This document shows positions 7,733-33,011 of a DNA stretch of 45,261 nt, piece by piece; the stretch's first letter is position 1; each line of letters starts with the position of its first letter. The translations under genes and the position numbers were made by a program. A model generated the notes under the pieces. The model was not told where the DNA came from, made no database searches, and saw only the letters and a program-made list of their open reading frames with translations. Source of the DNA: Candidatus Scatovivens sp. (GTDB lineage Bacteria; Bacillota; Clostridia; TANB77; CAG-508); assembly GCA_045630665.1 (NCBI GenBank), contig JAZQTI010000101.1, positions 1 to 45,261 on the forward strand, written 5' to 3'.

Positions 7733-7743
7733 AAGGAGTATGT

Positions 7744-8673
7744 ATGGTTCACGAAATATATATAATAGATAATGAAAATGAACTAACAGATAAACTAAAG
7801 GAAAACTTTAGAAGAGAAACAGATGAATATAAATTTAAAACAGTAAAAACATCAGAACTAGAAGTAGCATTAAGAAACATTCCTTCATTACTTATAATTG
7901 ATGAGGATACAACAGATATAAATATAGTAGAATTCTGTAAAAGTATTAGATCAAACGAAGATAACAGTATTACACCAATTATTGTAGTAAGTTCTAATAG
8001 AGAAAAAGAACATGCTGTAGAAGTATTAAAAACTGATGTACAATATTACATAAAAAAACCATTAGATGACGAATATTTTTATTACACAATAAAAAATATA
8101 GTTGGTCTTTTAACAAAAAACAGAAGAATAAGTCCTTTAACAGGTTTGCCTGGAAATGTTCAAATTCAAACTGAAATGAAGAAAAGATTATTAAATAAAG
8201 AAACATTTGCAATTTTATATTTCGACTTGGATAATTTCAAAGCATACAATGACGTGTATGGATTTGCAAATGGAGATGAAATAATAAAATTTACAGCAAG
8301 AACAATATCAAAACATATTCATCAAATAGAAAACAGTGATAATTTTATTGGGCATATAGGTGGAGATGATTTTGTTTCAATAATTGGTCAAACTGATTAT
8401 GATAAAGTATGTCAAAATATAATAACAGAATTTGATAAATATGCAGTTGACTATTATAATGAGGTTGATGTTGAAAGAGGCTATGTAGAGGTTGCTAACA
8501 GAAGAGGAATTATTGAACAATTCCCACTAACAACAATATCAATTGCAGTTTTAGAAGTTGATTCAAAAATTTATAAAACAACTCTTGAAATCGGAGAAGT
8601 TGCAGGGCAAATAAAACATAAAGCGAAAGCGGTTTTGGGAAGTACATATGTAATAAATAGAAGAAGATTTTAA
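7744..8673 (+). CDS. Response regulator: receiver domain fused to a GGDEF-family domain (motif reads GGDDF)
   Basis: REC signatures IYIIDNE, LLIIDED and YIKKP. GGDEF-domain signatures LTGLPGN, YFDLDNFKAYND..G...GD and HIGGDDF (nt 8359-8373). The gene starts 12 nt after the upstream stop and has RBS AAGGAG. Confidence 0.8.
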   Translation: MVHEIYIIDNENELTDKLKENFRRETDEYKFKTVKTSELEVALRNIPSLLIIDEDTTDINIVEFCKSIRSNEDNSITPIIVVSSNREKEHAVEVLKTDVQYYIKKPLDDEYFYYTIKNIVGLLTKNRRISPLTGLPGNVQIQTEMKKRLLNKETFAILYFDLDNFKAYNDVYGFANGDEIIKFTARTISKHIHQIENSDNFIGHIGGDDFVSIIGQTDYDKVCQNIITEFDKYAVDYYNEVDVERGYVEVANRRGIIEQFPLTTISIAVLEVDSKIYKTTLEIGEVAGQIKHKAKAVLGSTYVINRRRF

Positions 8674-8682
8674 TTAACAAGA

Positions 8683-8716
8683 AAGAAGATTTAGAAATTC
8701 TAAGTCTTCTTTTTTA
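8683..8716 (+). terminator. Intrinsic terminator after the REC-GGDEF gene
   Basis: AAGAAGATTTAG pairs with CTAAGTCTTCTT (one mismatch), followed by TTTTT. Confidence 0.65.
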
Positions 8717-11410: not shown

Positions 11411-11995
11411 ATGAGTAAGTGCGGAAATGATGAGCCCATTAAGCGGTTGTGTATGGCAATCCAGGAAGTGGTAAGAGAAGATTTACAGTGTGAGATTACC
11501 AAGTGTTATAATCACACCTACTCTATCATGAAGGTGATTGCAAATCCTGAAAAAGCATACACTGTGGAAGTAAAATTTCCTGCTGCTATTTGTGAAGGCG
11601 TTCATAATGATCCTGAATGTGAAGAATGGTCTATTGAGCGTTGGAAGCAAGTTGTTCGGAAGCTTCCGATTGAGTTTGCTGTCAAAGGACATACTCACAG
11701 CAGAATGATGGTAAAATCTAAACCCGAAGCAAATCCTCTCGAGTATGCCAAGTATTTCTGGAGAAAGTTTGACGACATGAAAGGTTGGAATATCAAAGTT
11801 GGTGCAGAAGAAACTATGCCCAAACTGCTTGAAACTGGAAATGAAGCGTCTTTAGAAGAGGCTGAGGATGAAACTGGGGCTATCGAAGCGCCGGAAATCC
11901 AGGAAGAAGTAATTGAAGAAAATCAATCTACTGCTCCGAAACAGAATCTCCAGGATGTCTATGGAATGATGGGAATGAGATTTGCTGCTATGTAG
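11411..11995 (+). CDS. Hypothetical protein, 194 aa, Cys-rich N-terminal half and acidic C-terminal tail (island A; compositionally foreign)
   Basis: Uninterrupted ORF with an RBS-like AGGGG 8 nt upstream of the ATG. G+C is 27/60 in nt 11641-11700. It uses codons (CGG, CTG, GCG, CCC, GGC) that are rare in the neighbours. I recognise no family motif. Confidence 0.7.
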   Translation: MSKCGNDEPIKRLCMAIQEVVREDLQCEITKCYNHTYSIMKVIANPEKAYTVEVKFPAAICEGVHNDPECEEWSIERWKQVVRKLPIEFAVKGHTHSRMMVKSKPEANPLEYAKYFWRKFDDMKGWNIKVGAEETMPKLLETGNEASLEEAEDETGAIEAPEIQEEVIEENQSTAPKQNLQDVYGMMGMRFAAM

Positions 11996-12007: not shown

Positions 12008-12039
12008 AGAGACCTGTGCATGCAGGTCTCTTTTCATTT
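12008..12039 (+). terminator. GC-rich hairpin terminator of island A
   Basis: AGAGACCTG (12008-12016), loop TGCATG, CAGGTCTCT (12023-12031), then TTTCATTT. Confidence 0.75.
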
Positions 12040-15266: not shown

Positions 15267-15701
15267 ATGAGAGAGATTACAATTAGATGTGCCCAAGAAA
15301 AAGACTACCCGAAGTTTCACAAGCTTCATAAACGGTTTGCCTATTTAGAATCAAACTCGGTTCGAAATACTACCACCGTTGATGAGGCAACCTTCAAGGA
15401 ATATGTGCAGCGTGAAAGTCTTTTTGTTGCATTTGACAGTGCTAATCAGATGGTTGGTTATGCTGTTGTAGATGCATATGAAGACAAAACCTGTGATATT
15501 CAAGAAATCTTTGTTGCACCAGAACATCAGCGCAAAGGATATGGAGAACAAATCGTTCAGTTTATCAAAGACGTCGCCAAAAACGAAGGAATTGAAAAAC
15601 TGTGCGTATTTTCCATTTTCATTCAAACTGATAATTTCTGGAGATGGAGATGCCGTTTTAAGGAAGAAGAGGGTGGAGAACTGGTTTATGTAATCAATTA
15701 A
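15267..15701 (+). CDS. GNAT-family N-acetyltransferase, 144 aa (island B; compositionally foreign)
   Basis: The ATG at 15267 lies 10 nt after AGGAGG (15251-15256). Acetyl-CoA motif A is IFVAPEHQRKGYGEQIV. G+C is 23/60 in nt 15481-15540, higher than the flanks. Confidence 0.75.
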   Translation: MREITIRCAQEKDYPKFHKLHKRFAYLESNSVRNTTTVDEATFKEYVQRESLFVAFDSANQMVGYAVVDAYEDKTCDIQEIFVAPEHQRKGYGEQIVQFIKDVAKNEGIEKLCVFSIFIQTDNFWRWRCRFKEEEGGELVYVIN

Positions 15702-19631: not shown

Positions 19632-20186
19632 ATGAAAAAAAATATTATTATAATTGTCGTTTCACTTATTATTTTTGTGTTAGCATTGGGATTTTTCTTA
19701 TATACTAGAAATGGAATGAATGTACTAGAAGAAGAGTTAGAAAATACTGTTATTGAAGAAGAATCAAAAACAAAGGATATAGAAAATGTAATGTATAATG
19801 ATTTTACATTATATAAATCTGACAATTCAGAAATAAAATTATCTGATTACAAAGACAAAGCTGTAATGTTATTGTTCTTTAATAAAGATACAGAAGATTC
19901 AATAGAAGTATTAAAAAAAGTAGAATCAATGTATAAAAATTATGAAGACAAAATTCAATTTTTAATGATTAATACAGCAGAAGAGGTTGATGAAAAATTA
20001 GCTAGTGAATATACTATAGAAATTTATTATGATTTTTATAAAGAAGCAGCTAGAACATATAATATAACAGAAACGCCATCAATGATTTATATAAATAAAG
20101 AAAATGAAGTGTTTAATGCAAAAAGTGGTTTTACAACAACAGATGCATTAGAAGCAAATTTAGATATTTTGTCTGAAAATATTTAA
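19632..20186 (+). CDS. Membrane-anchored TlpA/ResA-like thioredoxin-fold protein that lacks the CxxC motif
   Basis: N-terminal TM segment. The fold pattern F.L....G..I.LSDYKDKAV.L.FF...........L is present, but FNKDTEDS replaces W..CPPC. The protein contains no cysteine at all. Confidence 0.6.
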   Translation: MKKNIIIIVVSLIIFVLALGFFLYTRNGMNVLEEELENTVIEEESKTKDIENVMYNDFTLYKSDNSEIKLSDYKDKAVMLLFFNKDTEDSIEVLKKVESMYKNYEDKIQFLMINTAEEVDEKLASEYTIEIYYDFYKEAARTYNITETPSMIYINKENEVFNAKSGFTTTDALEANLDILSENI

Positions 20187-20654
20187 AAATACTTTTGTGT
20201 ATATTATATAAAAAATAAAATCGCAAATAGGGAATGAATATAAAATTCCTTTTGTGTTAAAAAGAATATAACAAATAAAAATTAAAAATATATGAGCAGT
20301 AATTTTTGATAAAACAAGAATTACTGTTTTTTTTGCATTTTTTTGAAATAAAAATGATGGTAGCAAAACTTTTAGACTATATAAGCTACTTGAAATAAAT
20401 AGAATTTTAGATGCATAAACTGCGTAATTAATAACACCAATTGTATCTGTGAAAATTGAGAAAATTTTATCGGAAAAAATATATACAAACATAGATAATA
20501 AGATTTCTATAATCGTTGCAGCAATTATAGAAATCAAGAAAGTATTTTTGTTATAAATACATTTTTTAAAAGAAATGCAAATAATAGGGAAAAGCATAAA
20601 TGTATATATTATTAAGTTAAGTAATAAACCTTGAATTTGTACTTGATTAAACAT
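20160..20654 (-). CDS. Hypothetical polytopic membrane protein (possibly a remnant of a larger transporter)
   Basis: RBS AGGAGA upstream of the ATG at 20654. Four or five hydrophobic segments. The 3' end overlaps the convergent gene by 27 nt. The transporter-fragment idea is only an impression. Confidence 0.45.
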   Translation of the reverse strand: MFNQVQIQGLLLNLIIYTFMLFPIICISFKKCIYNKNTFLISIIAATIIEILLSMFVYIFSDKIFSIFTDTIGVINYAVYASKILFISSSLYSLKVLLPSFLFQKNAKKTVILVLSKITAHIFLIFICYILFNTKGILYSFPICDFIFYIIYTKVFLNIFRQNI

Positions 20655-20890
20655 ATATTTCTCCTAAACTTTATATAAAAAAATTTACCACAAAAACTAT
20701 ATAAAGTCAAAATAAAACGAGAATTATAATTAATGAATTTTGAGAAAAAATGATGAATTTAAATTGGGAAATAAACAGATATTTAGAATAAATTAAGTGA
20801 TATTTTTAATGAAAGAAGAAATATTTGAAATGTATAAATTAAAAAGATTAATAGAATAATTAATAATTTTAAAAAAATATAAAAAAACGC

Positions 20891-20919
20891 TTGCAAAATA
20901 AAATGTTATATATTAAAAT
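20891..20919 (+). promoter_or_regulatory. dcw (mraZ) promoter
   Basis: TTGCAA (20891-20896), 17-nt spacer, TAAAAT (20914-20919). Confidence 0.65.
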
Positions 20920-20925
20920 TTAATT

Positions 20926-20952
20926 GAAGTGGAGAAAAGTGGAATAAAGTGG
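20926..20952 (+). promoter_or_regulatory. MraZ operator: three direct (A/G)AAGTGG repeats with 10-bp periodicity
   Basis: GAAGTGG (20926-20932), AAAGTGG (20936-20942) and AAAGTGG (20946-20952) lie just downstream of the -10 box. This is the arrangement described for MraZ autoregulation. Confidence 0.75.
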
Positions 20953-20978
20953 TAGAAAAAGGAAAGGAGTTGTAGCCA

Positions 20979-21404
20979 TTGTTAATTGGTGAATATGAGC
21001 ATTCTCTAGATGCTAAAGGCAGATTAATAATGCCTGCAAAACTTAGAGAAGACATTGGTGAAAAGTTCATAATAACAAAAGGTTTAGATGGTTGCTTATT
21101 TGCTTTTTCTATTGAGGAGTGGAAGAATTTTGAACAAAAATTAAGATCACTTCCAATTTCTAACAAAGATGCCAGAGCTTTCTCAAGATTTTTCTTCGCT
21201 GGTGCTATGGATTGTGAAATCGATAAGCAAGGGAGGTTCCTAATTTCAGGAAACTTAAGAGAATTTGCCGGACTTACAAAAGAAGTTGTAATAGTTGGTA
21301 TGGACTCTAGAATTGAAATTTGGAGTAAAGAAAAATGGCAACAATGTGATAACGAAATTTCTGCAGATGAAATTGCAGAAAAAATGGAAATGCTTGGTAT
21401 ATAA
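20979..21404 (+). CDS. mraZ: Transcriptional regulator MraZ
   Basis: TTG start 8 nt after [30 protein letters not shown] and a second [14 protein letters not shown] half form the duplicated SpoVT-AbrB motif. Confidence 0.9.
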
Positions 21405-21427
21405 CTTGCTAAAGTTTATATAAAAAG

Positions 21428-21650
21428 CCAAAGATAAAATTTTAAGATACAAAAGAAAAAAGTACAAAAGAAAAAATTTACAAAAGATAAATCTTTAGAA
21501 AAAACTAAAGAATAAGATGGTATACAAAAGAAATTTTGTCATACTAAAGAAAAAATATATAATTTACCAAGGTAAAAAATATATAATACAAAAGAAAAAA
21601 TATTAAAAAACCAAAGATAAAAAATTAAATTACAAAAGACAAAGTTACAA
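21428..21650 (+). repeat. Array of short A-rich direct repeats (core TACAAAAGA, variant CCAAAGATA) in the mraZ-rsmH spacer
   Basis: Exact TACAAAAGA occurs at 21448, 21463, 21479, 21523, 21587 and 21631. CCAAAGATAAAA occurs at 21428 and 21611. ACTAAAGAA occurs at 21505 and 21543. Confidence 0.7.
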
Positions 21651-21728
21651 TTAAGCAGGACAGTTGGTATAAAAATACCAACTGTTTATGCTAATTGGAA
21701 GAAAAAATTTTATCATGAGGGTAACAAT

Positions 21729-22655
21729 TTGGAATTTAATCATAAGTCAGTAATGCTAGAAGAATGCATCCAAGGTCTTAACATAAAACCAGATGGAATT
21801 TATGTTGATGGAACTATGGGTGGTGCTGGACACAGCAAAGAAATCGCCAAAAAAATATCAGAAAAAGGGCTTCTTATCGGAATTGATAGAGATCAAGAAG
21901 CTATTTGTGTTGCAAAGGAACGTTTAAATGAATTTAATAACGTTAAATTTGTGCATGATAATCATGATAATATAAAAGCTATTTTAGAAAATCTTGATAT
22001 TTCAGGAGTTGATGGTATTTTATTAGATTTAGGAGTTTCTTCGTATCAACTTGATGAAAGAAATAGAGGTTTTAGTTATATGGGAAGTGGTGAGCTTGAT
22101 ATGAGAATGGATCAAACTCAAACTTTGACTGCAAAAATTGTTGTAAATACATATAAAGAAGAGGATTTAGCAAAAATAATTTTTGAATATGGAGAAGAAA
22201 AGTTTTCACGTCCTATAGCTAGAAAAATTGTAGAATATAGAAAAACAAAAGAAATAGAAACAACAGAAGAATTAGTAAATATTATTGAAGAAGTTCTTCC
22301 AAGAAGAAAAGGAGAAGGACATCCTGCTAAAAGAACTTTTCAAGCAATAAGAATAGAAGTAAATGATGAAATAAAACCATTATATAATACTGTAATGGAT
22401 TCAATAGATGCACTAAAACCTGGTGGAAGACTTTGTATATTAACATTTCATTCTTTAGAAGATAGAGCAGTAAAAAATGCTTTTAATGATGCTGCTGGAA
22501 AATGTATATGCCCACCTGGATTACCATATTGTGTTTGTGGTGCTGTAACAAAAGGTAAAGTTATTACAAGAAAACCAATGTTACCAACAGATGAAGAAAT
22601 GGATGAAAATTCAAGAAGTAAAAGTGCAAAATTAAGAATATTTGAGAAAAAATAA
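21729..22655 (+). CDS. rsmH: 16S rRNA (cytosine1402-N4)-methyltransferase
   Basis: HKSVMLEECI...GIYVDGTMGGAGHS, LLDLGVSSYQLD, EDRAVKN and SAKLR are canonical RsmH motifs. The start is a probable TTG. Confidence 0.9.
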   Translation: MEFNHKSVMLEECIQGLNIKPDGIYVDGTMGGAGHSKEIAKKISEKGLLIGIDRDQEAICVAKERLNEFNNVKFVHDNHDNIKAILENLDISGVDGILLDLGVSSYQLDERNRGFSYMGSGELDMRMDQTQTLTAKIVVNTYKEEDLAKIIFEYGEEKFSRPIARKIVEYRKTKEIETTEELVNIIEEVLPRRKGEGHPAKRTFQAIRIEVNDEIKPLYNTVMDSIDALKPGGRLCILTFHSLEDRAVKNAFNDAAGKCICPPGLPYCVCGAVTKGKVITRKPMLPTDEEMDENSRSKSAKLRIFEKK

Positions 22656-22692
22656 ATTATTATAAAAATACTAAAGAAAGGAGGAAAACATT

Positions 22693-23271
22693 ATGCCGCT
22701 AAGACAATATTCATATCAATATGAAACTAGTCCTAGAAAAGTTAGACCTGAATATGATAAACCAAAGAAAACTTCTAGTTATAATAAAAACAAAACAAAA
22801 TCTAAACCAAAAGCTAAAAAAGTAACAACAAAGAAAAAAGAAAATATTGTAGAAAACAGTAAGAAAAAACAAGAAGACTTAAAATCAAAGAATGCATTAA
22901 TTACTAGAGCAAAAGTTTCTCTATTTTTAAAATGTATGATATTGTTTGCAATAATGTTTTTCATGGTTTATAGAAATTCCAAAATTAGTGAATCATTCTC
23001 ACAAATTCAAGCTTTACAGGCACAAATAACTGAAATACAAAAAGAAAATGATCAAATAGAAATAAATATTCAAAACAGTATTAATTTAAATAATATTGAA
23101 CAATCTGCAAAAGTATTACTTGGAATGCAAAAATTAACAAATAAACAAACATTTTATATTAATCTTCCAAAAAAAGATTATGTTGAAGCAAGAACAGAAA
23201 AAGTTATAATTGAAGAAGAAAACTCAAATTGGATTGAGAAAACAATAGAAAAAATAAAAGATATTTTTTAA
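22693..23271 (+). CDS. ftsL: FtsL-like cell-division protein (Lys-rich N-terminus, one TM segment, coiled coil)
   Basis: The gene sits between rsmH and the class B PBP. Its topology is basic tail, TM segment (LFLKCMILFAIMFFMV), then a heptad-rich segment. RBS AGGAGG. Confidence 0.65.
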   Translation: MPLRQYSYQYETSPRKVRPEYDKPKKTSSYNKNKTKSKPKAKKVTTKKKENIVENSKKKQEDLKSKNALITRAKVSLFLKCMILFAIMFFMVYRNSKISESFSQIQALQAQITEIQKENDQIEINIQNSINLNNIEQSAKVLLGMQKLTNKQTFYINLPKKDYVEARTEKVIIEEENSNWIEKTIEKIKDIF

Positions 23272-23308
23272 GACGGATAATAGAAAAATAAATTATCTGT
23301 CTTTTTTT
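23271..23308 (+). terminator. Hairpin plus T-tract between ftsL and the PBP gene
   Basis: AGACGGATAAT pairs with ATTATCTGTCT (one G-T pair), followed by TTTTTTT. Confidence 0.6.
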
Positions 23309-23367
23309 GTGCAAAATTCTTTTTTTAAAAAATCTGAATAAGATTTATAAAATCGAATTAGGAGAGA

Positions 23368-25161
23368 ATGATGCAAAAAAGAAATTTGGATTCTAAAAAA
23401 AGAATAATGTTACTACTTTATGCAGTAATTATTTTATGGATTATTGTTATTATAAGAGTTGCAATAATTCAACTTGTTGAAGGAGAAAAATGGAAAAATA
23501 AATCAGAAGAACAACAATATGTAAGTAGAAGTATAACAGCAGGTAGAGGTACAATTTATGATACGAGTGGGAAAATAGTTTTAGCCCAAAGTAGTACTGT
23601 CCAAACTGTTACAATTAATCCAACAAATATTCCAAAAGAAAATAGAGAAATTGTAGCAAAAAAATTATCTGAGATTTTTGAGTTAGAATATGAGAAAATT
23701 TTAAAAAAAGTTAATAAAAATAGCTCAATCGAAACAATTATAAAAAGGGTTGACAAAGAAAAAACAGATGAACTCAGAAAATGGATGGAAGAAAAAAGTA
23801 TATTTACAGGAATAAATATTGATGAAGACACAAAAAGATATTATCCATATTCGAGTTTAGCGTCTCATATAATTGGATTTGTTGGAAGTGATAATCAAGG
23901 ATTGGATGGTATTGAAGCTAAATATAATAAAGTATTAACTGGAGAAAATGGAAGTATTAGCAAGATGCTTGATGCTAAAGGGAATATTATAGAAAATACA
24001 GGTGAAGAATATGAAAAATCTATGCAAGGGAATAATTTGATTTTAACAATAGATATGAATATTCAAGCCATTGTTGAAAAATATTTAGAAGAAGCATGTA
24101 TAGAAAATATTTGTACAAATGGAGGAAATGTAATTATAATGAATCCTAAAAATGGAGATGTTTTAGCAATGGCAACATATCCTTTCTATGATTTGAATAA
24201 TCCATATGAAATAAATAATATGGATTTGAAAGAAATATGGAGTGAATTAGATACGACACAAAAGTCATTATATTTACAAGGAATGTGGAGAAATAAAGCT
24301 GTAGCAGATACTTATGAACCGGGATCTACATTTAAATTAGTTACAGCATCAGCTGCAATAGAAGAAGGAATTGCAAGTCCGGATAAATCGGGAAGTTTTT
24401 TGTGTACAGGTGGAATTGAGGTGGCTAAAGTAAGAATAAAATGCTGGAGATATTATAGACCTCATGGTAGTCAGAGTTTAAGAGAAGGACTGATGAATTC
24501 GTGTAATCCAGTATTTATTGGATTAGGTCAAAAAATTGGGGTTTCTAAATATTATAATTATTTAGAAAAATTTGGTTTTTTGAAAAAAACTGGTATAGAT
24601 TTAATTGGAGAAGCTAATTCAATATTTTTAAAAGAAGAAAAAGTTGGACCAGTAGAACTTGCAACTATAAGTTTTGGTCAAAGATTTGAAGTTACACCAA
24701 TCCAAATGATTACTATGGTATCAACAATTGCTAATAAAGGAGTATATATAAAACCTCGAGTTGTAAGAGCAATTCAAAATCCAATAACAGAAGAAACACA
24801 AGAAATAGAAGTAGAATATGGAGAAAGAACTATATCAGAAAGAACTGCAGAATCAGTTTTAAGTATGATGACATCAGTGGTTTCAGAAGGAACTGGAAAA
24901 AATGCTAGAGTACAAGGATATAATGTCGGAGGAAAAACAGGAACTTCTGAAGATGGAGTAAATACTGGAAAATATGTAACATCTTTTATAGGTGTAGCTC
25001 CGACAGACGATCCAAGTATTTGTATTTTAGTTACTTTGTATAATCCAACAGGAGAAGCAGGTCATCAAGGTGGAACTGTTGCTGCACCAGTAGCAGGAAA
25101 AATTTTAAATGAAGTTATAAATTATCTAGAAATACCAACAAAAAGTGAGGTAGATACTTGA
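23368..25161 (+). CDS. Class B penicillin-binding protein (FtsI/PBP2B/SpoVD type transpeptidase)
   Basis: N-terminal TM segment and a dimerisation domain. Motifs STFK (GSTFKLV), SxN (NSCNP) and KTG (GGKTGTS). The alternative start ATG at 23371 is slightly better spaced from GGAG. Confidence 0.9.
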   Translation: MMQKRNLDSKKRIMLLLYAVIILWIIVIIRVAIIQLVEGEKWKNKSEEQQYVSRSITAGRGTIYDTSGKIVLAQSSTVQTVTINPTNIPKENREIVAKKLSEIFELEYEKILKKVNKNSSIETIIKRVDKEKTDELRKWMEEKSIFTGINIDEDTKRYYPYSSLASHIIGFVGSDNQGLDGIEAKYNKVLTGENGSISKMLDAKGNIIENTGEEYEKSMQGNNLILTIDMNIQAIVEKYLEEACIENICTNGGNVIIMNPKNGDVLAMATYPFYDLNNPYEINNMDLKEIWSELDTTQKSLYLQGMWRNKAVADTYEPGSTFKLVTASAAIEEGIASPDKSGSFLCTGGIEVAKVRIKCWRYYRPHGSQSLREGLMNSCNPVFIGLGQKIGVSKYYNYLEKFGFLKKTGIDLIGEANSIFLKEEKVGPVELATISFGQRFEVTPIQMITMVSTIANKGVYIKPRVVRAIQNPITEETQEIEVEYGERTISERTAESVLSMMTSVVSEGTGKNARVQGYNVGGKTGTSEDGVNTGKYVTSFIGVAPTDDPSICILVTLYNPTGEAGHQGGTVAAPVAGKILNEVINYLEIPTKSEVDT

Positions 25162-25186
25162 AAAAAAGCCTAAAAAGCTGTATAAT
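25158..25186 (+). promoter_or_regulatory. Sigma-A-type promoter driving GC-rich island C; its -35 box overlaps the PBP stop codon
   Basis: TTGAAA (25158-25163; the PBP stop TGA is at 25159-25161), 17-nt spacer ending in CTG, TATAAT (25181-25186). Confidence 0.65.
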
Positions 25187-25239
25187 GCTAGATGGCAAAA
25201 CATTTTGTTCTCATAAAATTTGCAATGGAGGTAAGCATT

Positions 25240-25965
25240 ATGGATGAGAATCGTGTGTTCGAATTGCGCGTTCCTGAAGGCGCAGTAGTCAAAGACGTGA
25301 AATTCAATCCATATTGGGGCTTTGTCGCAGCAACGATGGAGGTCCTAGGGATTGCAATCACGTTTATCCGGACTGACTTCATAAAAGAGGTCAGGAGAGT
25401 CACATGGGATATGTCAGAAGTCCTTTCGGTATCTGATTACCATGAAGTGTTACCCAGTGTGGTTACCAAAAGTATCGAGAAATGCAAAGGAATTTTCATT
25501 TCCAGAGACTTTGCGATGGTGGACCCTGAGCTGGGAGAACTGGTTCCCAATTCTGGAGTTGTCAAAAGAGGTATGTGCTTCGATGAAGCCCCAAATGCTC
25601 TTCTGGAAATTCCCGGGATGGAAGCAAGTTTGCTTTATGGTGCGGTATATGATACCATTGGAAGATGGCTTATCGCAACCAAATCTCTTTCTTATGATGA
25701 ATGGGTCAACAGCCCTACAACTAAGAAAGAACAAGATGCAATTCTGGATCGAGAATGCGGCAACTGGACGATTCGAGAACTCTTCGGAGATATTTTCGAT
25801 ACTGAGTGGACAATGGAGTCCTATCAGCAGTATGCTGTGGCAAGAGAAGGAACACCGTTTTCCGACGGTGAAGCACTTTACCCCGCAAGAAAGCGGTATA
25901 CTTATCAAACCTGGATGAAACATTCCAAAGCAGCGGTAAGAACAATGTGGTCGTTTAAGGAGTGA
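25240..25965 (+). CDS. Hypothetical protein, 241 aa (island C; compositionally foreign, inside the dcw cluster)
   Basis: The ATG at 25240 lies 8 nt after GGAGG (25227-25231). The ORF is uninterrupted. G+C is 29/60 in nt 25261-25320, against 14/60 in murE nt 26221-26280. I recognise no family motif. Confidence 0.7.
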   Translation: MDENRVFELRVPEGAVVKDVKFNPYWGFVAATMEVLGIAITFIRTDFIKEVRRVTWDMSEVLSVSDYHEVLPSVVTKSIEKCKGIFISRDFAMVDPELGELVPNSGVVKRGMCFDEAPNALLEIPGMEASLLYGAVYDTIGRWLIATKSLSYDEWVNSPTTKKEQDAILDRECGNWTIRELFGDIFDTEWTMESYQQYAVAREGTPFSDGEALYPARKRYTYQTWMKHSKAAVRTMWSFKE

Positions 25966-25978
25966 GAGACACAAGCAA

Positions 25979-26010
25979 AGGAGACCTGAGAATTCAGGTC
26001 TCCTTTACGT
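25979..26010 (+). terminator. GC-rich hairpin terminator of island C
   Basis: AGGAGACCTGA (25979-25989), loop GAAT, TCAGGTCTCCT (25994-26004), then TTACGTT (a weak T-tract). Confidence 0.65.
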
Positions 26011-26206
26011 TCGAAAATGATTAGTAATAAATCTAAAAATATATAATAAAATTAAAGTAAAATAAATAAAAAATTATATACAAAAAAATCATTTTGCTAT
26101 ATAATAACATTGATATACTACAAAGATATCGAATTAAAGGAAAAACAAATTAGAAACGAATATAAAATTTTATATTTGCAATAACAAATTTCGAAGGAGA
26201 ATTCAA

Positions 26207-27679
26207 ATGGAATTAAAAAAACTTTTAATAGGAATTGAGAATTTCAAATCAAAAGGAGATATGGATATTGATATAAAGAAAGTGGAATGTAATTCAAAGA
26301 AAATTGTTCCAAATTCTTTATTTATTGCAATAAAAGGTTATGATTTTGATGGTCATGAATATATATCAGAAGCGATAGAAAATGGTGCTGTTGCTGTTAT
26401 GTTAGATATGTCAGCTGACTTTAAAAAAATAAAAATACCAAGTGGAGTTACAGTAATAATTACAGATGATACAAGAAAAGCATTAGCAAGAGTTTCTTGT
26501 AATTATTTCGGAAATCCTTCAAGATATTTTAAACTTATAGGTGTTACAGGAACAAAAGGAAAAACAACAACAACTTATATGATTAAATCTATTTTAGAAA
26601 AAGCAGGATATAAAGTTGGCTTAATAGGAACAATTGCTAATTATATAGGAGATGAATGTTTAGGCTTTAGCAATAGAACAACTCCAGAAAGTTTAGAACT
26701 TCAAGGTTTATTCTATAAAATGGCAAAAGCAAAATGTGATTATGTAGTAATGGAAGTTTCCTCACAAAGTTTAAAACTATCTAGAGTTGAAGGATGTAAT
26801 TTCGATTACGGTATATTCACTAATCTATATAAAGATCATATTAGTTTAAAAGAACATGCTGATATGAATGAATATTTTGAAACAAAATTAAAATTATTTA
26901 CAATGTGTCCAAGAGCATTTATAAATAGTGATGATTTTAAATGTAATAAAATAATTAAAGGAGCTCCAAATTGTAATATAAGTACTTATGCAGTTGATAA
27001 CAAAGCTGATTTATTAGCTAAAGATATTACAATAACAAATATAAGTGTAGACTTTAAAGTAAAACTAGGAGTTAGAAACGAAAGAATTAAAGTAAATATT
27101 CCAGGAAGATACAGCGTATATAATGCATTAGCTTCAATCTCATTAGCTACAGCTTTAGGAATAGATGTTGAAAAAATAAAAGAAGGATTAGAAAATATTG
27201 TAGTTCCAGGAAGAAACGAATTAGTACCAAACAAAGAAGATTTACCAATAATGATAGATTATGCTCATACAGCAGAAAGTTTAGAAAATATTCTTCAAGC
27301 AGCAAAAACTTATACACCTGGAAAAGTAATTTGTGTATTTGGTTGCGGTGGAGATAGAGATAAAGAAAAAAGACCGAAAATGGGTGAAGTTGCGGGACGT
27401 TTGGCTGATTACACAATAGTAACAACAGATAATCCAAGAACAGAAAATCCAGAAGAAATTATAGAAAGTATAGAAGTTGGAATAGCAAAAACAAAAGGAA
27501 AATATGAAATAGTAGTAGACAGAAGAGAAGCAATTGCCAAAGCAATCAAAATGATGGGAAAAAGAGATTTGGTAATTTTAGCAGGAAAAGGTCATGAAAC
27601 TTATCAAGAGATTAATGGAGAAAAATATCCATTAGATGAAAGAGAAATTGTAAAAGAAATATTAGGAGAGAAAAAATAA
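26207..27679 (+). CDS. murE: UDP-N-acetylmuramoyl-L-alanyl-D-glutamate--2,6-diaminopimelate ligase
   Basis: ATP-binding loop GVTGTKGKTTT. The DNPR motif (TTDNPRTENP) indicates meso-DAP specificity. RBS AAGGAGA. Confidence 0.9.
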   Translation: MELKKLLIGIENFKSKGDMDIDIKKVECNSKKIVPNSLFIAIKGYDFDGHEYISEAIENGAVAVMLDMSADFKKIKIPSGVTVIITDDTRKALARVSCNYFGNPSRYFKLIGVTGTKGKTTTTYMIKSILEKAGYKVGLIGTIANYIGDECLGFSNRTTPESLELQGLFYKMAKAKCDYVVMEVSSQSLKLSRVEGCNFDYGIFTNLYKDHISLKEHADMNEYFETKLKLFTMCPRAFINSDDFKCNKIIKGAPNCNISTYAVDNKADLLAKDITITNISVDFKVKLGVRNERIKVNIPGRYSVYNALASISLATALGIDVEKIKEGLENIVVPGRNELVPNKEDLPIMIDYAHTAESLENILQAAKTYTPGKVICVFGCGGDRDKEKRPKMGEVAGRLADYTIVTTDNPRTENPEEIIESIEVGIAKTKGKYEIVVDRREAIAKAIKMMGKRDLVILAGKGHETYQEINGEKYPLDEREIVKEILGEKK

Positions 27680-28650
27680 TGACAACTCAGATAATATATT
27701 TGATTTTATCTTTTGTATTAACAGCTGTTTTAGGAAAAGTAATTATACCAATTTTAAAAAAATTAAAAGTTGGTCAAAATGAAAGAGCTTGTGGTCCAAG
27801 AGCACATTTAAAAAAACAAGGTACACCTACAATGGGTGGAATAATGATGATTATAACAATTATTGTTCTTGTTGCAATTTATTCAATTTTAAATCCACAA
27901 GAAGAATTACTAGTTCCAATTCTAGCAATTGCAATAGCAAGCTTAGGGTTTGGAATTGTAGGATTTATAGATGATTATAAAAAAGTTGTTTTGAAAAATA
28001 CAGAAGGATTAAATCCTAAATTAAAAATGTTAGGATTGCTTATAATTTCTGTTATATATACAATGTTTTTAATAAAGTACGTTGGGCTTGGAACAGACAT
28101 TATAATTCCAATAATAAATTATAATTTACAATTACCATTATGGATTTTTATACCATTTACAATATTTGTTATGTTAGGAAGTACAAATGCTGTAAACTTA
28201 ACAGATGGTGTTGATGGGTTAGCTGGAAGTGTTACAGCAATAATGGTTACAGCAATATCAATAATAGCTATGCAAGCTGGATATGAAAGTATTTCTTGTT
28301 TTGGAGCTATTGTTGTTGGAACATGTGGTGGATTTTTAATTTATAATTTTCATAAAGCTAAAGTAATGATGGGAGATACAGGTTCATTACTTTTAGGTGG
28401 AGTTATATCTAGTATGATGATTTATTTAAAAAATCCGTTATTACTAGTATTAATAGCTATAATTCCTGTAATTGAAACATTATCTGTTATTATGCAAGTT
28501 GTATATTTTAGATTTACAGGAAAAAGATTATTTAGAATGTCTCCATTACATCACCATTTTGAATTAACTGGATGGAGAGAAAATAGAGTTGTTGGTGTAT
28601 TTTCACTAATAACATTAATTGCATCAGTATGTGCAATACTTATAGTTTAA
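27679..28650 (+). CDS. mraY: Phospho-N-acetylmuramoyl-pentapeptide transferase
   Basis: The ATG overlaps the murE stop by 1 nt (TAATG). Motifs GTPTMGG, NAVNLTDGVDGLA, MGDTGS and PLHHHFE. Confidence 0.92.
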   Translation: MTTQIIYLILSFVLTAVLGKVIIPILKKLKVGQNERACGPRAHLKKQGTPTMGGIMMIITIIVLVAIYSILNPQEELLVPILAIAIASLGFGIVGFIDDYKKVVLKNTEGLNPKLKMLGLLIISVIYTMFLIKYVGLGTDIIIPIINYNLQLPLWIFIPFTIFVMLGSTNAVNLTDGVDGLAGSVTAIMVTAISIIAMQAGYESISCFGAIVVGTCGGFLIYNFHKAKVMMGDTGSLLLGGVISSMMIYLKNPLLLVLIAIIPVIETLSVIMQVVYFRFTGKRLFRMSPLHHHFELTGWRENRVVGVFSLITLIASVCAILIV

Positions 28651-28700
28651 GGTTTATAGATAAATCCAAAAAATCTAAATAAAAAAATATAGGTTAAAAA

Positions 28701-29870
28701 ATGGTAAAAAGAACAAAAGCAAAAAGATTCTCATTTTTATTAAATGGAAAATTCGATTATTCTATATTAATAATAACCCTATTACTTTTATGTATAGGGT
28801 TAATAATGTTATTATCAGCAAGTGCTCCAGTATCATTTTCAGAAAATGGAAATAGCTATGATTATGTAGTAAAACAAGGTGGGGTAGCATTATTAGGTTT
28901 AGCAGCAATGATAGTATTATCAAAAATTGATTATAGAATATACAGAAAATTAAAATGGTTAATATATATTGTTTTTGTTGCATTACTATTTTTAGTTGGT
29001 TTTATTGGAATTGGAGAAAATGGAGCAAGAAGATGGATTAATCTTTTTGGATTTTCATTCCAACCATCAGAGTTTGCGAAAGTTGCATTTATAATTTTTT
29101 ATGCATCACTTTTAACAGACATGAAAGAAAAAAATAAAATAAGAAAAATAGTACCTGGATTTATATATCCATTAATATTCTTAGGACCAATAGCATTTGC
29201 TCTTTTAAAATTGCAAAACCATTTTAGTTCAACATTTGTAATTGCTGCAATAACTTGTGTTCAAATGTTTGTTGCAGGTTCTTTATTTAGATATTTTATT
29301 GGAGCCGGAACATTTGTTATTGGTGCTTTTGTATTATATCTTCTAAGAAATATGGCAGCAGGAGAAGCAACTGACTTTAGATTTACTAGAATACAAACAT
29401 GGCTTAATGTAGAAGCTGATTTAACTGGTGCAGGATGGCAAATAAATCAAAGTTTATATGCTATAGGTTCAGGTGGATTATTTGGTTTAGGACTAGGAAA
29501 TAGTAAACAAAAATATTTATATTTACCAGAGCCACAAAACGATTTTATTTTTGCTGTATTAGCAGAAGAATTAGGCTTCATTGGTGCTATAGCAGTAATA
29601 ATTCTTTTCATATTGTTTATTTGGAGAGGAATTATAATTGCAATAAAAGCTGAAGATACATTTGGAAGCTTAATATCAATTGGTATAACAACAATGATAG
29701 GATTACAAGCAATAGTAAATATTGCAGTTGTAACAAATACAATGCCAGTAACAGGTATGCCATTACCATTCTTTAGTTATGGTGGTTCTGCAATGCTTGC
29801 CAACTTAATGGCAGTTGGAATTTTACTGAGTGTATCTAGAAACAGTAAGAAAAATAATAATAAAGGTTAA
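28701..29870 (+). CDS. ftsW: SEDS-family peptidoglycan polymerase (FtsW/SpoVE)
   Basis: Polytopic protein. QPSEFAK, LPEPQNDFIF and PLPFFSYGGS are SEDS motifs. It occupies the dcw position between mraY and murG. Confidence 0.85.
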   Translation: MVKRTKAKRFSFLLNGKFDYSILIITLLLLCIGLIMLLSASAPVSFSENGNSYDYVVKQGGVALLGLAAMIVLSKIDYRIYRKLKWLIYIVFVALLFLVGFIGIGENGARRWINLFGFSFQPSEFAKVAFIIFYASLLTDMKEKNKIRKIVPGFIYPLIFLGPIAFALLKLQNHFSSTFVIAAITCVQMFVAGSLFRYFIGAGTFVIGAFVLYLLRNMAAGEATDFRFTRIQTWLNVEADLTGAGWQINQSLYAIGSGGLFGLGLGNSKQKYLYLPEPQNDFIFAVLAEELGFIGAIAVIILFILFIWRGIIIAIKAEDTFGSLISIGITTMIGLQAIVNIAVVTNTMPVTGMPLPFFSYGGSAMLANLMAVGILLSVSRNSKKNNNKG

Positions 29871-29910
29871 TAGGACCTAAAAACCTAAATATATTTTAAG
29901 GATGTAGAAA

Positions 29911-31026
29911 ATGAAAGTTATCATTGCGGCAGCAGGAACTGGTGGACATATAAATCCAGGAATTGCGATTGCTAATAAAATAAAAGAAAAAGATCCAAAA
30001 TCTGAAATTATATTTATAGGAACTAATAGAGGATTAGAAAATGATTTAGTTCCTAGAGCTGGATATAAATTAAAAACAATTGATGTATATGGATTAAAAA
30101 AAGAATTTTCATTAACAAATATAAAACATATATTTCAAACTATTGCTAGTAGAAAAGATGTTAAAAAAATATTTGATGAATTTAAACCTGACCTAGTTTT
30201 AGGAACTGGTGGATATATATGTGGACCAGTATTTTATGTTGCTGTGTCTAGAAAGATTCCAACAATTCTTCATGAAAGTAATGCATATCCAGGAAAAGCT
30301 GTAAAAATGTTTTCAAAAAAAGTTAATAGTGTGTTAGTTGGATTTGAAGATACAAAATCAAAATTGGAAGGATGTAAAAATATAGTAGTAACAGGTACTC
30401 CTACAAAAATTAGAAAAATAGATGTATCAAAGACTAGAAAAAAAGAAATATTAGAAGAAATAGGCATAAAAAATGATTTACCAATTGTATTGATTTATGG
30501 TGGTAGTCAAGGTGCTCAAAGAATAAATGAAGCTGTTATAGATTTAATTACATCTAATAGAAATAAAGATTATCAAATAATTTGGGCAACAGGACCAAAA
30601 CAATATGATATAGTAAAAGAGAACTTTGAAAAACAAAATATTTATATAAATAGTATTAAAAATGTAAAAATATTACCATATATATACAATATGGAAGAAT
30701 TGATGAATATATCAGATTTGTTAGTTTGTAGAAGTGGTGCTATGACAATTACAGAAGTATCAATTGTAGGAAAACCAGCGATATTTATTCCGCTTCCATC
30801 AATATCAGCCAATAGACAAGAAGATAATGCACTTGTTCTTAAGAAAATAGGGGCTGCAAAAATGATATTAAATAATGAAGTAAATGGAACAAATTTAGCA
30901 GAAGAAATTGATGATATCATACATGATAAATTAGAACTTGATGAAATGGGGAAAATGGCAAATACAATTGCTCCATCGGACGTTGAAGAAAAAATTTATG
31001 AAGAAATAGTTAAAGTACTAAAGTAA
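29911..31026 (+). CDS. murG: UDP-N-acetylglucosamine--N-acetylmuramyl-(pentapeptide) pyrophosphoryl-undecaprenol GlcNAc transferase
   Basis: AAGTGGHINPGIAIA N-terminal G-loop, GGSQGA, and RSGAMTITE...G.P.I.IP. Confidence 0.9.
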   Translation: MKVIIAAAGTGGHINPGIAIANKIKEKDPKSEIIFIGTNRGLENDLVPRAGYKLKTIDVYGLKKEFSLTNIKHIFQTIASRKDVKKIFDEFKPDLVLGTGGYICGPVFYVAVSRKIPTILHESNAYPGKAVKMFSKKVNSVLVGFEDTKSKLEGCKNIVVTGTPTKIRKIDVSKTRKKEILEEIGIKNDLPIVLIYGGSQGAQRINEAVIDLITSNRNKDYQIIWATGPKQYDIVKENFEKQNIYINSIKNVKILPYIYNMEELMNISDLLVCRSGAMTITEVSIVGKPAIFIPLPSISANRQEDNALVLKKIGAAKMILNNEVNGTNLAEEIDDIIHDKLELDEMGKMANTIAPSDVEEKIYEEIVKVLK

Positions 31027-31061
31027 AAGAGAGGAAAAAACAAATGTAAAGGAGAGTAAAT

Positions 31062-33011
31062 ATGGCCTCAGGTGAAAGTGAACAAGATTTATTAAAAGAT
31101 ATTGCAGAACAAATTGCCAAAAATCAAATGTCATTTGATTCGAAAAGTGAAGAAGAAAAACGAAAATTATTAGGAAAATTAGATATTATTGCTGCAAGCC
31201 AATTAAATGAATTACAAAAAGAATTTAATGCTTTGATTGGCGGAATTGAAGGTGAAATACCAGAAAATGCAAGAATAATAATCTTACAAGGCATTAGTGA
31301 CAGAGTTTCTAGTGAGAGAATAAAATCATTAGATAATATTTTTTCATCTAAAGATGTTCAGGTATTAGCATCAACAATTGTTACAGAAATAGTATCAAAG
31401 AATACCGACAAAGAAATAGTAGAAGATAAAGCAGACATATTAATTCTTGGAAAAAATCTGGAAATTGATAAAGATGAAATTCAAGAAAAATTATTAAATG
31501 ATTTATCTGAAAAGTATGATGGAAAATATACATTACCAGAGGAAATGAAAATGCAAGAAGAAGATATTGCTAATATAGTAAGTGAACTTGACGAAACAGA
31601 ACTTGCAAAAACAATTGATAAAGCTAATGGTGGAGACAAAAATTCTAGAATAGTAATTACAGCGTTAATGTCTGCTATGCCATTTGCAAAAACAACAGTG
31701 AAATTTGAAGAGTTGAGTGGTTCAGATAAAGAAATAGCACTTCGTTCATTAGACACTTTGGCACTTGCTTATGCTGAAATTGGAGATTCAAATCTTTTTG
31801 TTGCTGCACAAAAACTTTCTGAAAAATGGGGAGTTGAGATAATAACATATGATGAAAACGGTAAACCAACAATAGATAGAGAAAAAATAAAAGAATTTGC
31901 AAAGCAAAATAATATCAATTATAGCACTGCCAAAAAAGAAGATTTTGAGTTATATGATAAAGCGTACAAAAATTTAGATGGAGTAGATGATTTTACAATA
32001 GAAACTCAAATAACAGCAACTCAATATAGTTTAAATAGAAATATAGATATCTTTACACAAGAAATACGAAGTGGTAGAAAATTAGAAGAACTACAACCTC
32101 AAATAGATCTTATGTTTGAAGAGAATTTTGATGCGACTTTAATGGTTTTAAAAGATCTTGGTGAAGGATGGAAAGATGATACAGAAATTTCACCAGCAGA
32201 AAGAAATATGAGATTCTATATGTTTAATAAAGCAGCTTTACTATATGAAGGTGCTCAAAAAGGTGAAAATGATGGAGTTATAGATAATTTTACAGATGGT
32301 TATATGCAAGGAATTATTGATTCTTCAATTGATTTTATGATAAAATCTGGATTCGAAAACAAAGAGTTAATAGATAATATGCTTAGAGTTGCTCCTAATG
32401 AAGTTCAAAAGAAAATGAAAGATTCTAAATTTAGTCAATATGATTTAAAACCATCTACAGAATGTGAGCCAATAAAACAAGAGCAAGAACAAGATGATCC
32501 ACTTATGAAAAAAATAAAAAATTTATTAAAAACATTAAATAATAGAATTGATAATAGAGGAATTGATAATACATTAGATTATGTAAGTACTATGATTACA
32601 AGCACTTCTGATTTACCTACGAAAAAAGATTATATGAATGTAATGTTCAATATTTTAGAAAATAGAGAAAATTCGTATAATCCTAAAGAAATGGCAGCAA
32701 GAAAAGGCTTTTTCTCAGCTATTATAGCAGAAAGAATTTATGATGAACAAGCTTTGAAAAAAATGGTAGAAATAGATTCTACTTCTACCAAAGGAATACT
32801 TGACGATATGATTGAAAGACAAAATACTTTGAGTGAAAATAATATAGATGCTATAATGGATATAGGTAAGCAAATGAAAGAAGCAAAAGATACAAAAGTG
32901 TTAGAATCTGGAAAAGTTAGTGTAACTGACGTTGTTGAACATATTGTGGCAAACGAAGAAACAGAAAAAACTTTTGAGAACTCTGATCGTGATGATGATG
33001 ATGCAAGATAA
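31062..33011 (+). CDS. Large acidic orphan protein, 649 aa (paralog family member 1); last gene before the dcw-region terminator
   Basis: RBS AAGGAGAG 6 nt upstream. There is no terminator between murG and this gene. No signal peptide or TM segment. It contains YDENGKPTIDREKIKEF and the tail ...SDRDDDDAR. Confidence 0.75.
   Translation: MASGESEQDLLKDIAEQIAKNQMSFDSKSEEEKRKLLGKLDIIAASQLNELQKEFNALIGGIEGEIPENARIIILQGISDRVSSERIKSLDNIFSSKDVQVLASTIVTEIVSKNTDKEIVEDKADILILGKNLEIDKDEIQEKLLNDLSEKYDGKYTLPEEMKMQEEDIANIVSELDETELAKTIDKANGGDKNSRIVITALMSAMPFAKTTVKFEELSGSDKEIALRSLDTLALAYAEIGDSNLFVAAQKLSEKWGVEIITYDENGKPTIDREKIKEFAKQNNINYSTAKKEDFELYDKAYKNLDGVDDFTIETQITATQYSLNRNIDIFTQEIRSGRKLEELQPQIDLMFEENFDATLMVLKDLGEGWKDDTEISPAERNMRFYMFNKAALLYEGAQKGENDGVIDNFTDGYMQGIIDSSIDFMIKSGFENKELIDNMLRVAPNEVQKKMKDSKFSQYDLKPSTECEPIKQEQEQDDPLMKKIKNLLKTLNNRIDNRGIDNTLDYVSTMITSTSDLPTKKDYMNVMFNILENRENSYNPKEMAARKGFFSAIIAERIYDEQALKKMVEIDSTSTKGILDDMIERQNTLSENNIDAIMDIGKQMKEAKDTKVLESGKVSVTDVVEHIVANEETEKTFENSDRDDDDAR

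Follow-up and report, generated by a model that had tools for sequence, protein, structure and literature searches.

Within the division and cell wall (dcw) gene cluster of a Candidatus Scatovivens sp., on a stretch of 45,261 nucleotides (nt) that we refer to as the window, a single gene of foreign appearance lies between the gene for a class B penicillin-binding protein (PBP, the division PBP) and murE. This gene, here called gene X (open reading frame (ORF) 25240–25965, + strand, 241 amino acids (aa)), belongs to a lineage in which several small modules share a foreign-looking codon usage, and it is the long-term upkeep of this usage that is new. On balance we think it probable, with a good deal of room for doubt, that gene X is an old monocistronic insertion, inherited vertically with losses, which encodes a binding protein and whose codon usage is maintained. 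The gene would have been inserted long ago between the PBP stop codon and a pre-existing murE promoter, in an ancestor of AT-rich uncultured gut Clostridia, and would afterwards have come down by vertical descent, with loss in several lineages. It would be transcribed from its own near-consensus sigma-A-type promoter, with a start predicted near 25193, and translated from a strong GGAGG site; its own intrinsic terminator would block read-through into murE, and murE and the genes downstream would be served by a conserved promoter of their own. The product, non-catalytic and cytoplasmic, would have the FGE-sulfatase / C-type-lectin fold (FGE, formylglycine-generating enzyme) and would bind a conserved ligand. 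Of these points the anatomy, the age, the patchy occurrence, the fold family and the steady composition are shown by the sequence and its comparison with relatives; the activity of promoter and terminator, the binding role and the reason for the codon usage are inferred.

Composition, age and descent of gene X

The coding sequence of gene X has 45.2% G+C against ~28% in its flanks, and its G+C at third codon positions (GC3) is 0.44 against ~0.10 (0.09–0.12 in PBP, murE, mraY, ftsW and murG of the window). A preliminary description of this DNA had drawn attention to the contrast, and its figures are exact: 29 of 60 nt are G or C in 25261–25320 (gene X) against 14 of 60 in 26221–26280 (murE), and the codons CTG, CCC, GCG, CGG and GGC, which it had called frequent, occur 4, 4, 3, 2 and 3 times in gene X and are rare in its neighbours (1, 0, 1, 0 and 0 times in PBP; 0, 0, 2, 0 and 2 times in murE). 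CCC, CGG and CGC, all used in gene X, do not occur among the 9,871 codons of 18 native window genes. Further, gene X avoids the commonest native codons CCA, TCA, ACA, ATA, TTA and CAA, retains GCA, AGA, GAA and T-ending codons, and uses CAG, AAG, CTG, GGC, ATC, CCC and CGN; that is, the pattern is codon-specific and not a general GC shift. Third-position A is 0.24–0.29 against 0.50–0.54, a greater drop than that of T, which is lowered too, and the shift spans the whole gene X transcript.

Among 5.8 billion proteins the gene X product has 25 homologue clusters, all unannotated, and the family alignment has 46 invariant columns. In at least 12 independent assemblies, which represent two clades of Clostridia resembling Ca. 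Scatovivens, the gene is the immediate upstream neighbour of murE; the contexts retrieved, 12 or so, are without exception dcw clusters with this arrangement (loci L001, L003/L009, L004, L007, L008, L010, L022, L025, L031 and L097–L100; L003 and L009 are one contig of a Candidatus Scatovivens sp. metagenome-assembled genome (MAG), L007 and L010 are MAGs labelled uncultured Lachnospiraceae and L008 is a roe-deer Clostridia MAG). In every one of these loci bar the L010/L097–L100 clade it lies between PBP and murE; in that clade eight AT-rich genes stand between PBP and gene X, which still adjoins murE. These eight-gene inserts (L010 3133–7798; L098 2650–8781; L099 2668–8788) include a signal-peptidase-like gene and several TasA/camelysin-like N-terminal signals (..GTYAKYTT).

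Protein identity to the window copy is 44–58%, against 72–93% for RsmH, PBP, MurE, MraY and MurG, and the gene X protein evolves ~3–4 times faster than its neighbours; synonymous sites of gene X are near saturation between orthologues, and near-identical contigs from within a species differ at only 0–2 sites. Kept across the orthologues are the promoter, a GTTCTCA box, the GGAGG, an ACACAAnC box and the terminator, all of which are described below. The gene X groups parallel the MurE tree: (L004, L007, L001), (L008, L009, L022, L031), the window, and (L010, L098, L099). In the close pairs L004/L007 and L008/L009, gene X has a nucleotide identity of ~0.8, equal to that of PBP, with no sharp break at the module borders. 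Such comparisons suggest that gene X has descended vertically under weaker protein constraint, with no cassette replacement. In L008 the gene is apparently frameshifted (7986–8700; a 149-aa ORF plus remainder) and in L004 murE (7064–8535) falls into two ORFs; each case would be due to an assembly error or to a pseudogene.

The preliminary description had read the module as recently acquired and comparable to a phage moron. Phage morons are autonomous promoter-gene-terminator inserts between conserved prophage genes, as recognized from comparisons of lambdoid phages. Part of the likeness stands: gene X is a single gene of atypical composition, present in some and absent from other collinear genomes, and consensus, conservation and terminator covariation all point to a promoter and a terminator of its own around the single ORF. 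It differs from a moron, however, in lying in a chromosomal dcw cluster, with mraZ, rsmH, ftsL, PBP, murE, mraY, ftsW and murG as its neighbours, and not in a prophage; in having no phage homologues that we could find (no match in 50,697 phage records, nor in 72,556 plasmids); and in being old, vertically inherited and of a composition that is not decaying. A foreign moron newly landed in the dcw cluster would fit the sharp composition contrast, the autonomous promoter and terminator and the empty sites in some close relatives. We nevertheless regard it as very improbable: the gene occupies this site, with the same composition, in at least 12 assemblies, its copies having diverged to the identities given above with near-saturated synonymous sites, the gene X tree is congruent with the flanks, and the regulatory elements are conserved. 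The claim of recent acquisition does not survive these observations, which are of the kind that the preliminary description had itself named as refuting it. An assembly chimera or a contaminating GC-rich fragment, which the composition jump and nothing else would favour, has a negligible probability in our view, as both junctions and an identical architecture recur across many samples, in independent assemblies from ENA, JGI, NCBI and Logan.

Flank GC3 is 0.07–0.17 in every X-bearing lineage measured, and the GC3 of gene X is 0.40–0.52 in eight lineages of both clades, among them the window (0.44), L001 (0.45), L004 (0.40), L007 (0.43), L098 (0.52) and L099 (0.51); it is 0.34 in L009, and in L010 the gene is back to native codon usage (0.20) with its ORF and promoter intact. 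At four-fold degenerate sites of conserved residues we measured G/C retention, the chance that a G or C in one orthologue is G or C in the other. In the flanks it is 0.03–0.26, near the background G+C of such sites (GC4) of 0.04–0.15, and in gene X it is 0.43–0.65 among GC-rich orthologues (0.33 for the L099–L010 pair), near the gene's own GC4 of 0.3–0.5. The four-fold sites of gene X and of the flanks would thus both be essentially randomised between lineages, around different equilibria. Parsimony-polarised changes in gene X comprise 28 from A/T to G/C and 15 from G/C to A/T, and there is therefore no net decay of GC.

In the amelioration model that Lawrence and Ochman reportedly put forward in 1997, acquired genes converge to the composition of the host at the synonymous rate. 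The GC content and codons of gene X are atypical, as expected of acquired DNA, but there is no convergence: the synonymous sites of the neighbours have turned over completely and the GC4 of gene X is still 0.3–0.5, and the prediction of neutral amelioration therefore fails. A single ancient transfer followed by slow and still unfinished neutral amelioration, with GC3 values of 0.52, 0.45, 0.34 and 0.20 as stages of decay, would account for the spread of GC3 among lineages and for the nearly native L010 gene. We judge it improbable. With the four-fold G/C of the flanks randomised, a neutral gene X should have a GC4 of ~0.1, whereas it holds 0.3–0.5 in both deep clades; changes from A/T to G/C are at least as frequent as the reverse; and codon-specific preferences have been re-created in each lineage, the same preferences recurring independently in the nine GC-rich orthologues examined. 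The composition looks to us like a maintained stationary state and not like the leftover of a recent transfer.

A high GC3 alongside saturated divergence between alleles would also be explained if old gene X alleles persisted in an unsampled GC-richer reservoir, be it a phage, a plasmid or another bacterium, and were repeatedly delivered to, or exchanged at, the junction, the copies themselves being young. The junction has the behaviour of a hotspot, with an unrelated GC-rich gene in L026 (see below); the codon pattern common to all the GC-rich modules would resemble that of gut Firmicutes of 40–50% GC; and the distribution of gene X on the MurE tree is patchy. Still, such re-seeding seems unlikely to us, as no reservoir copy was found in the 5.8 billion proteins or in the phage and plasmid records, the gene X tree follows the MurE tree at three nested levels, gene X diverges at the PBP nucleotide rate in close pairs with no identity break at its borders, and no integrase, att-like direct repeats or clear target duplication were found. 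It is because of the co-phylogeny that we rate this explanation below codon-level selection, to which we return below.

Anatomy of the module and its junction

Gene order in the window, from a Pfam scan and the ORF list, is mraZ-rsmH-ftsL-PBP-X-murE-mraY-ftsW-murG. The upstream neighbour PBP (23368–25161, +; Pfam PBP_dimer and Transpeptidase) ends in a TGA (25159–25161) that overlaps the −35 box TTGAAA (25158–25163) of a predicted gene X promoter (25158–25186, +), in which a 17-nt spacer leads to TATAAT (25181–25186). The site matches the consensus at 11 of 12 positions, which places it among the top two promoter-like matches within 20000–32000, an AT-rich region in which such matches are not enriched overall (64 observed against 74 expected). 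A TTGaaA/TTGCAA and TATAAT/TATTAT pair stands at the equivalent position in all 10 orthologous loci whose sequence extends upstream of the gene. The Shine-Dalgarno sequence GGAGG (25227–25231, +), kept in the orthologues, lies 8 nt ahead of the ATG (25240).

Beyond the stop codon an ACACAAnC box (25969–25976, +), present in all orthologues, directly precedes a putative intrinsic terminator (25977–26006, +). Its hairpin (25979–26004) is AGGAGACCTGA-GAAT-TCAGGTCTCCT, an 11-bp GC-rich stem extendable to 13 bp, with a GAAT loop and then the TTT of a T-tract. The stem sequence varies among lineages with pairing kept, and 10 of the 11 consensus stem pairs show compensatory changes across 11 orthologues, which supports a genuine hairpin terminator. 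A box resembling ACACAAnC, ACAAAC, also precedes the hairpin of a second module of the window (11411–11995, see below). After the terminator comes an AT-rich spacer that runs to the murE promoter (26007–26076, +) and aligns with the post-terminator spacers of orthologous loci; the whole spacer up to murE (26005–26206) has 202 nt and 17% GC. Promoter elements, ribosome-binding site (RBS), ORF, hairpin and spacer are all where the preliminary description had placed them, and its notion of a self-contained promoter-RBS-gene-terminator unit gains support from the conserved promoter and RBS and from the terminator covariation.

The 5′ untranslated region (UTR) carries a box, GTTCTCA(T) (25207–25214, +), that is invariant in 11 orthologues and complementary to codons 2–4 of gene X (ATGAGAAT, 25244–25251). 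GTTCTCA and TGAGAA are both invariant in these 11 orthologues, the spacing between them is variable, and they are paired in the minimum-free-energy fold. We infer that the 5′ UTR GTTCTCAU may pair with codons 2–4 AUGAGAAU to form a stem whose loop holds the Shine-Dalgarno sequence and the AUG; as both halves are invariant, covariation cannot confirm the pairing. Such a stem could tune translation or shield the 5′ end of the gene X transcript. A search for known RNA elements gave no Rfam family at threshold in the window and only chance-level matches in 25100–26260.

Relatives without gene X, found by a MurE-based scan of metagenome contigs, provide the empty-site comparison that the preliminary description had proposed: PBP and murE are contiguous in the close relatives L013, L014, L016, L017 and L018. 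In the last four of these the PBP stop codon is followed within ~5–35 nt by the murE promoter region (TTCTGTACAAAA..TTTTACTATATAATA), and in L013 a ~60-nt AT-rich spacer lies between the two. In the window this promoter is TATACA / 17 nt / TATAAT (26077–26105, +), for which TTCTGTACAAAA..TTTTACTATATAATA is the clade consensus, and it is conserved in relatives with and without gene X, standing directly after PBP in the X-less genomes (TTCTGTACAAAA...TACTATATAAT); the junction therefore had its own murE promoter before gene X. Relative to such a bare PBP–murE junction, gene X is an insertion, and a dispensable one. With the module comes a terminator that separates the mraZ-PBP unit from murE, and the preliminary description had held that it must terminate or rewire read-through from upstream. 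Rewiring is an overstatement, as the murE promoter is already at the junction in genomes without gene X. The downstream neighbour murE (UDP-MurNAc-tripeptide synthetase; 26207–27679, +; Pfam Mur_ligase, Mur_ligase_M and Mur_ligase_C) also has a leader palindrome conserved 5′ of its RBS (GCAAAATTTTGC; in the window ATATAAAATTTTATAT, within 26077–26206, with equivalents in L001, L004, L009, L013 and L014), which may be an operator or an attenuator.

The distribution of gene X among these relatives is uneven. On the MurE tree the window has L013 as its sister (MurE 94% identical), and L013 has no gene X; the gene was therefore lost there, or the junction replaced. That L013 imported its empty site from an X-less lineage was considered and rejected, its PBP fragment not being specifically near to any sampled lineage. 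Several intermediate lineages (L014–L023) lack gene X and the basal L010/L098/L099 clade has it, for which one old gain and several losses is the simplest account. In L026 (MurE 71% identical) the PBP–murE junction holds an unrelated 284-aa orphan gene in the opposite orientation (2819–3673, −), with a GC3 of 0.54, the same codon pattern as gene X and a terminator of its own beside the PBP stop codon. The junction seems to be a hotspot at which single genes are inserted. Lineage-specific genes do occur in the dcw cluster of Firmicutes: in Bacillus subtilis, spoVD lies between pbpB and murE; it is a PBP paralogue of native composition. Gene X resembles spoVD in being an additional gene, apparently under regulation of its own, placed between division PBP and murE, but unlike spoVD it is unrelated by sequence to cell-wall enzymes and compositionally alien. 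The dcw cluster would thus be less fixed than has been assumed, with a PBP–murE junction that has an internal promoter and the behaviour of a hotspot.

As for how gene X might have moved, the marks of a mobile element (insertion sequence, integron cassette or integrative element) that we looked for, recombinases and target duplications, did not appear. The scanned window ORFs (of which five, of 381, 649, 684, 786 and 980 aa, gave an uninformative Pfam match or none) contain no recombinase or transposase domain, a direct-repeat search of the window gave no repeat involving gene X or its borders, and comparison with the empty sites gave no clear target duplication, inverted repeats and attC-like sites not having been searched for. 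The terminator was the only palindrome seen at the module borders. The earlier remark that no recombinase, inverted repeat or target duplication is visible there holds for recombinases and clear duplications.

Fold and likely role of the gene X product

Direct searches gave no match for the gene X product in Pfam, NCBIfam, PHROG, PADLOC or PDB sequences, and a direct test against Pfam gave no match for it or for any of 21 family members up to E 10. To this extent the preliminary description, which could assign no motif to the protein, was right, but iterative profile searches do lead to a fold. Among 1.84 billion representative proteins, a profile of the 21 family members (A3) picks out 141 remote relatives that cover residues ~62–245. 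In hhalign this profile aligns with a profile of 30 of these relatives (A5) at 99.9% probability (E 3.5e-33, 205 columns), and 23 of these 30 match PF03781 (FGE-sulfatase), with a best E of 4.4e-9. The combined broad profile (A4) matches SUMF2/pFGE 1Y4J (E 1.4e-4), the Treponema denticola variable protein TvpA 2Y3C (E 2.6e-3), which belongs to a diversity-generating retroelement (DGR), and PorK/GldK structures. The gene X product would on these grounds be a very divergent, cysteine-less member of the FGE-sulfatase / C-type-lectin fold, and a new branch of it. It has in common with FGE-fold proteins (PF03781; TvpA 2Y3C, TaqVP 5VF4, SUMF2/pFGE 1Y4J) a domain of ~240 aa with the core GN..EWT...R(G/E)G...(Y)PA..R...FR, and it differs from them in falling below the Pfam threshold and in having neither the catalytic cysteines nor a signal peptide.

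The preliminary description had also proposed structure prediction and Foldseek comparison of the 241-aa product. A first AF2 model, from a shallow alignment, had a pLDDT of 71.6 and no useful Foldseek matches in PDB or BFVD; a second model, from a deeper alignment, reached a pLDDT of 95.2 and a pTM of 0.91, and TvpA, TaqVP, FGE, PorK and OvsA are among its top twelve Foldseek matches, all below significance.

The catalytic cysteine pair of true FGEs sits in the segment that follows the RGG motif. In the gene X family this segment, REGxPFSDGExxYPARKRYxY, is invariant and free of cysteine, unlike that of a catalytic FGE. Of the 46 invariant columns, 15 fall within the last 40 residues, and variation is concentrated at residues ~88–125; as the C-terminal segment is fixed, the protein is most likely a binding protein for a conserved ligand. 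On a reading of the sequence it has neither a signal peptide nor a membrane segment; from the fold only, it would best be read as a cytoplasmic binding protein.

DGR variable proteins have this same fold, and it could be proposed that gene X is, or recently was, a DGR target, its fast evolution and adenine depletion being due to mutagenic retrohoming. The Tyr/Asp/Ser/Cys/Asn-rich C-terminal segments of the remote relatives may, to judge by eye, resemble variable regions, third-position A falls more than T in gene X, and its protein evolves faster than its neighbours, as noted above. We find the proposal scarcely credible. No direct repeat of any part of gene X that might serve as a template repeat occurs within the 45-kb window, no reverse transcriptase (RVT) domain was found among the scanned window ORFs or the genes called at 12 related loci, and the segment equivalent to the variable region, hypervariable in a DGR target, is invariant and the most conserved part of the gene X family. 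Moreover T falls as well, and the shift in composition extends over the full transcript and not over ~100 bp. Because neither a template repeat nor a reverse transcriptase turned up in the sequence covered, and because the variable-region equivalent is conserved, gene X does not appear to be an active DGR target; it would represent a new cytoplasmic, non-diversified branch of the DGR variable protein fold. PADLOC-DB gave no match for gene X, the other GC-rich modules of the window or two of the remote relatives.

Three remote FGE-fold relatives (loci L093 7001–7738; L095 1963–2808; L096 7001–8269) are lone genes with promoter and terminator of their own, wedged into core operons. P0060 lies directly before recA-recX, P0043 lies directly before murA-ftsQ (GC3 0.33 against 0.11–0.19 in its flanks), and P0169, which is not GC-rich, lies between nrnA and truB. 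This placement upstream of recA, murA and truB hints at a common role or a common insertion logic.

A second codon pattern and its possible meaning

Three other single genes of the window share the codon pattern of gene X; each has a strong RBS and lies between its own promoter-like site and its own terminator. The first is a 194-aa orphan gene (11411–11995, +; GC3 0.38; terminator 12009–12030), which lies between Sm_multidrug_ex and DUF1836 genes and has only two homologue clusters among the 5.8 billion proteins (87–94% identity). The second encodes a GNAT acetyltransferase (15267–15701, +; GC3 0.32), has a GGAGG-type RBS and is also found in the close relative L011. The third encodes a 98-aa predicted membrane protein of no family match (44577–44873, +; GC3 0.39), between the genes for a 980-aa coiled-coil protein and rpsL. 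The terminator stem core GAGACCTG/CAGGTCTC is identical in gene X and the 194-aa orphan, where it has its sole recurrence in the window (12009–12030; 0 expected by chance), and the gene X stem differs in other X-bearing genomes; this common core may reflect intragenomic copying of a terminator.

Other features of the window lie outside these modules. A 1282-aa CLIPPER-domain surface protein (2516–6364, +) has ~654-nt tandem-like internal repeats (four copies, 62–100% identity), and the AT-rich mraZ–rsmH intergenic region (21421–21650) has two 47-nt direct repeats, 83% identical and 183 nt apart, which adjoin the best promoter-like site (21536–21563).

Several causes of the odd composition were considered and set aside. 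As to selection on mRNA structure, the whole gene X transcript gives z = −5.65, but that figure includes the terminator; for the coding sequences only, the z values of the gene X orthologues (−1.7 to −4.9) overlap those of their AT-rich neighbours (−0.5 to −3.7), and structure was dropped as a cause specific to gene X. GC-biased gene conversion was rejected by argument, as its tracts must end in the flanks and the 3′-end of PBP and the 5′-end of murE have a GC3 of ~0.1. High-expression codon bias does not fit: in the window the start of rpsL is AT-rich at third positions, and so are nusA/infB at a comparable AT-rich locus. As causes of the high GC, known RNA families and DGR mutagenesis were likewise put aside, the one with no Rfam match at threshold in the window and the other with no template repeat or reverse transcriptase found, as was a GC-rich donor pool, none having been found in the 5.8 billion proteins or in the phage and plasmid records.

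With these set aside, selection at the level of codons, for example for keeping translation low or conditional, is most likely what lies behind the GC content and codon usage of gene X. Possible agents include a rare tRNA or tRNA modification, codons robust to starvation, and escape from an A/U-specific nuclease; neither the window nor any of 20 related loci contains a tRNA gene. Codon-dependent control of expression is known from the TTA/bldA system of Streptomyces and from the choice of codons robust to starvation. Gene X is like TTA/bldA in the way it might work, and in that sense only: a few genes draw on codons that are otherwise avoided across the genome. It is unlike it in that many codons are affected and not one, and in that no dedicated tRNA or regulator was identified.

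A number of points weigh against our explanation of gene X as an old, vertically inherited insertion that encodes a binding protein and has a maintained codon usage. The stationarity of its composition is drawn from 35–89 four-fold sites per pair, and from parsimony near saturation, in loci derived from MAGs, and these are modest counts. The special codon usage is not needed for persistence, as the L010 gene is intact with native usage. The patchy spread, with presence in the core and basal clades and absence between, would need several losses or a transfer between clades, and the tree against which it is read is that of MurE alone, made by neighbour joining. The case for promoter and terminator activity is made from consensus and conservation only. 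As regards the fold, the link to PF03781 is a transitive one for a protein that falls below every Pfam threshold, and Foldseek comparison with FGE-fold structures is not significant (E > 0.2, TM 0.27–0.34).

Atypical composition is usually read as a sign of recent horizontal transfer, and gene X keeps such a composition across a divergence of genus level or deeper. If selection maintains it, compositional methods would misdate genes of this kind, and the choice of codons may be functional and regulated in this class of genes in AT-rich gut bacteria. We tentatively propose, as a possibility that is more doubtful than probable, that in this lineage of extremely AT-rich Clostridia selection keeps up a second codon pattern, confined to a minority of the genes, as a regulatory layer. 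The set that carries the second pattern may include gene X, the 194-aa orphan, the GNAT gene and the gene for the small membrane protein in the window, as well as the junction gene of L026. Each of these is monocistronic, with a strong predicted promoter and a terminator to itself; they draw on CCC, CGG and CGC, which are absent from native genes, and shun TTA, ATA, CCA, TCA and CAA, the most frequent native codons. Were this so, codon choice would be regulatory in these bacteria and no faded sign of foreign origin, and the translation of such genes would be tied to tRNA, to tRNA modification or to physiological state, or their transcripts would resist an A/U-specific RNase.

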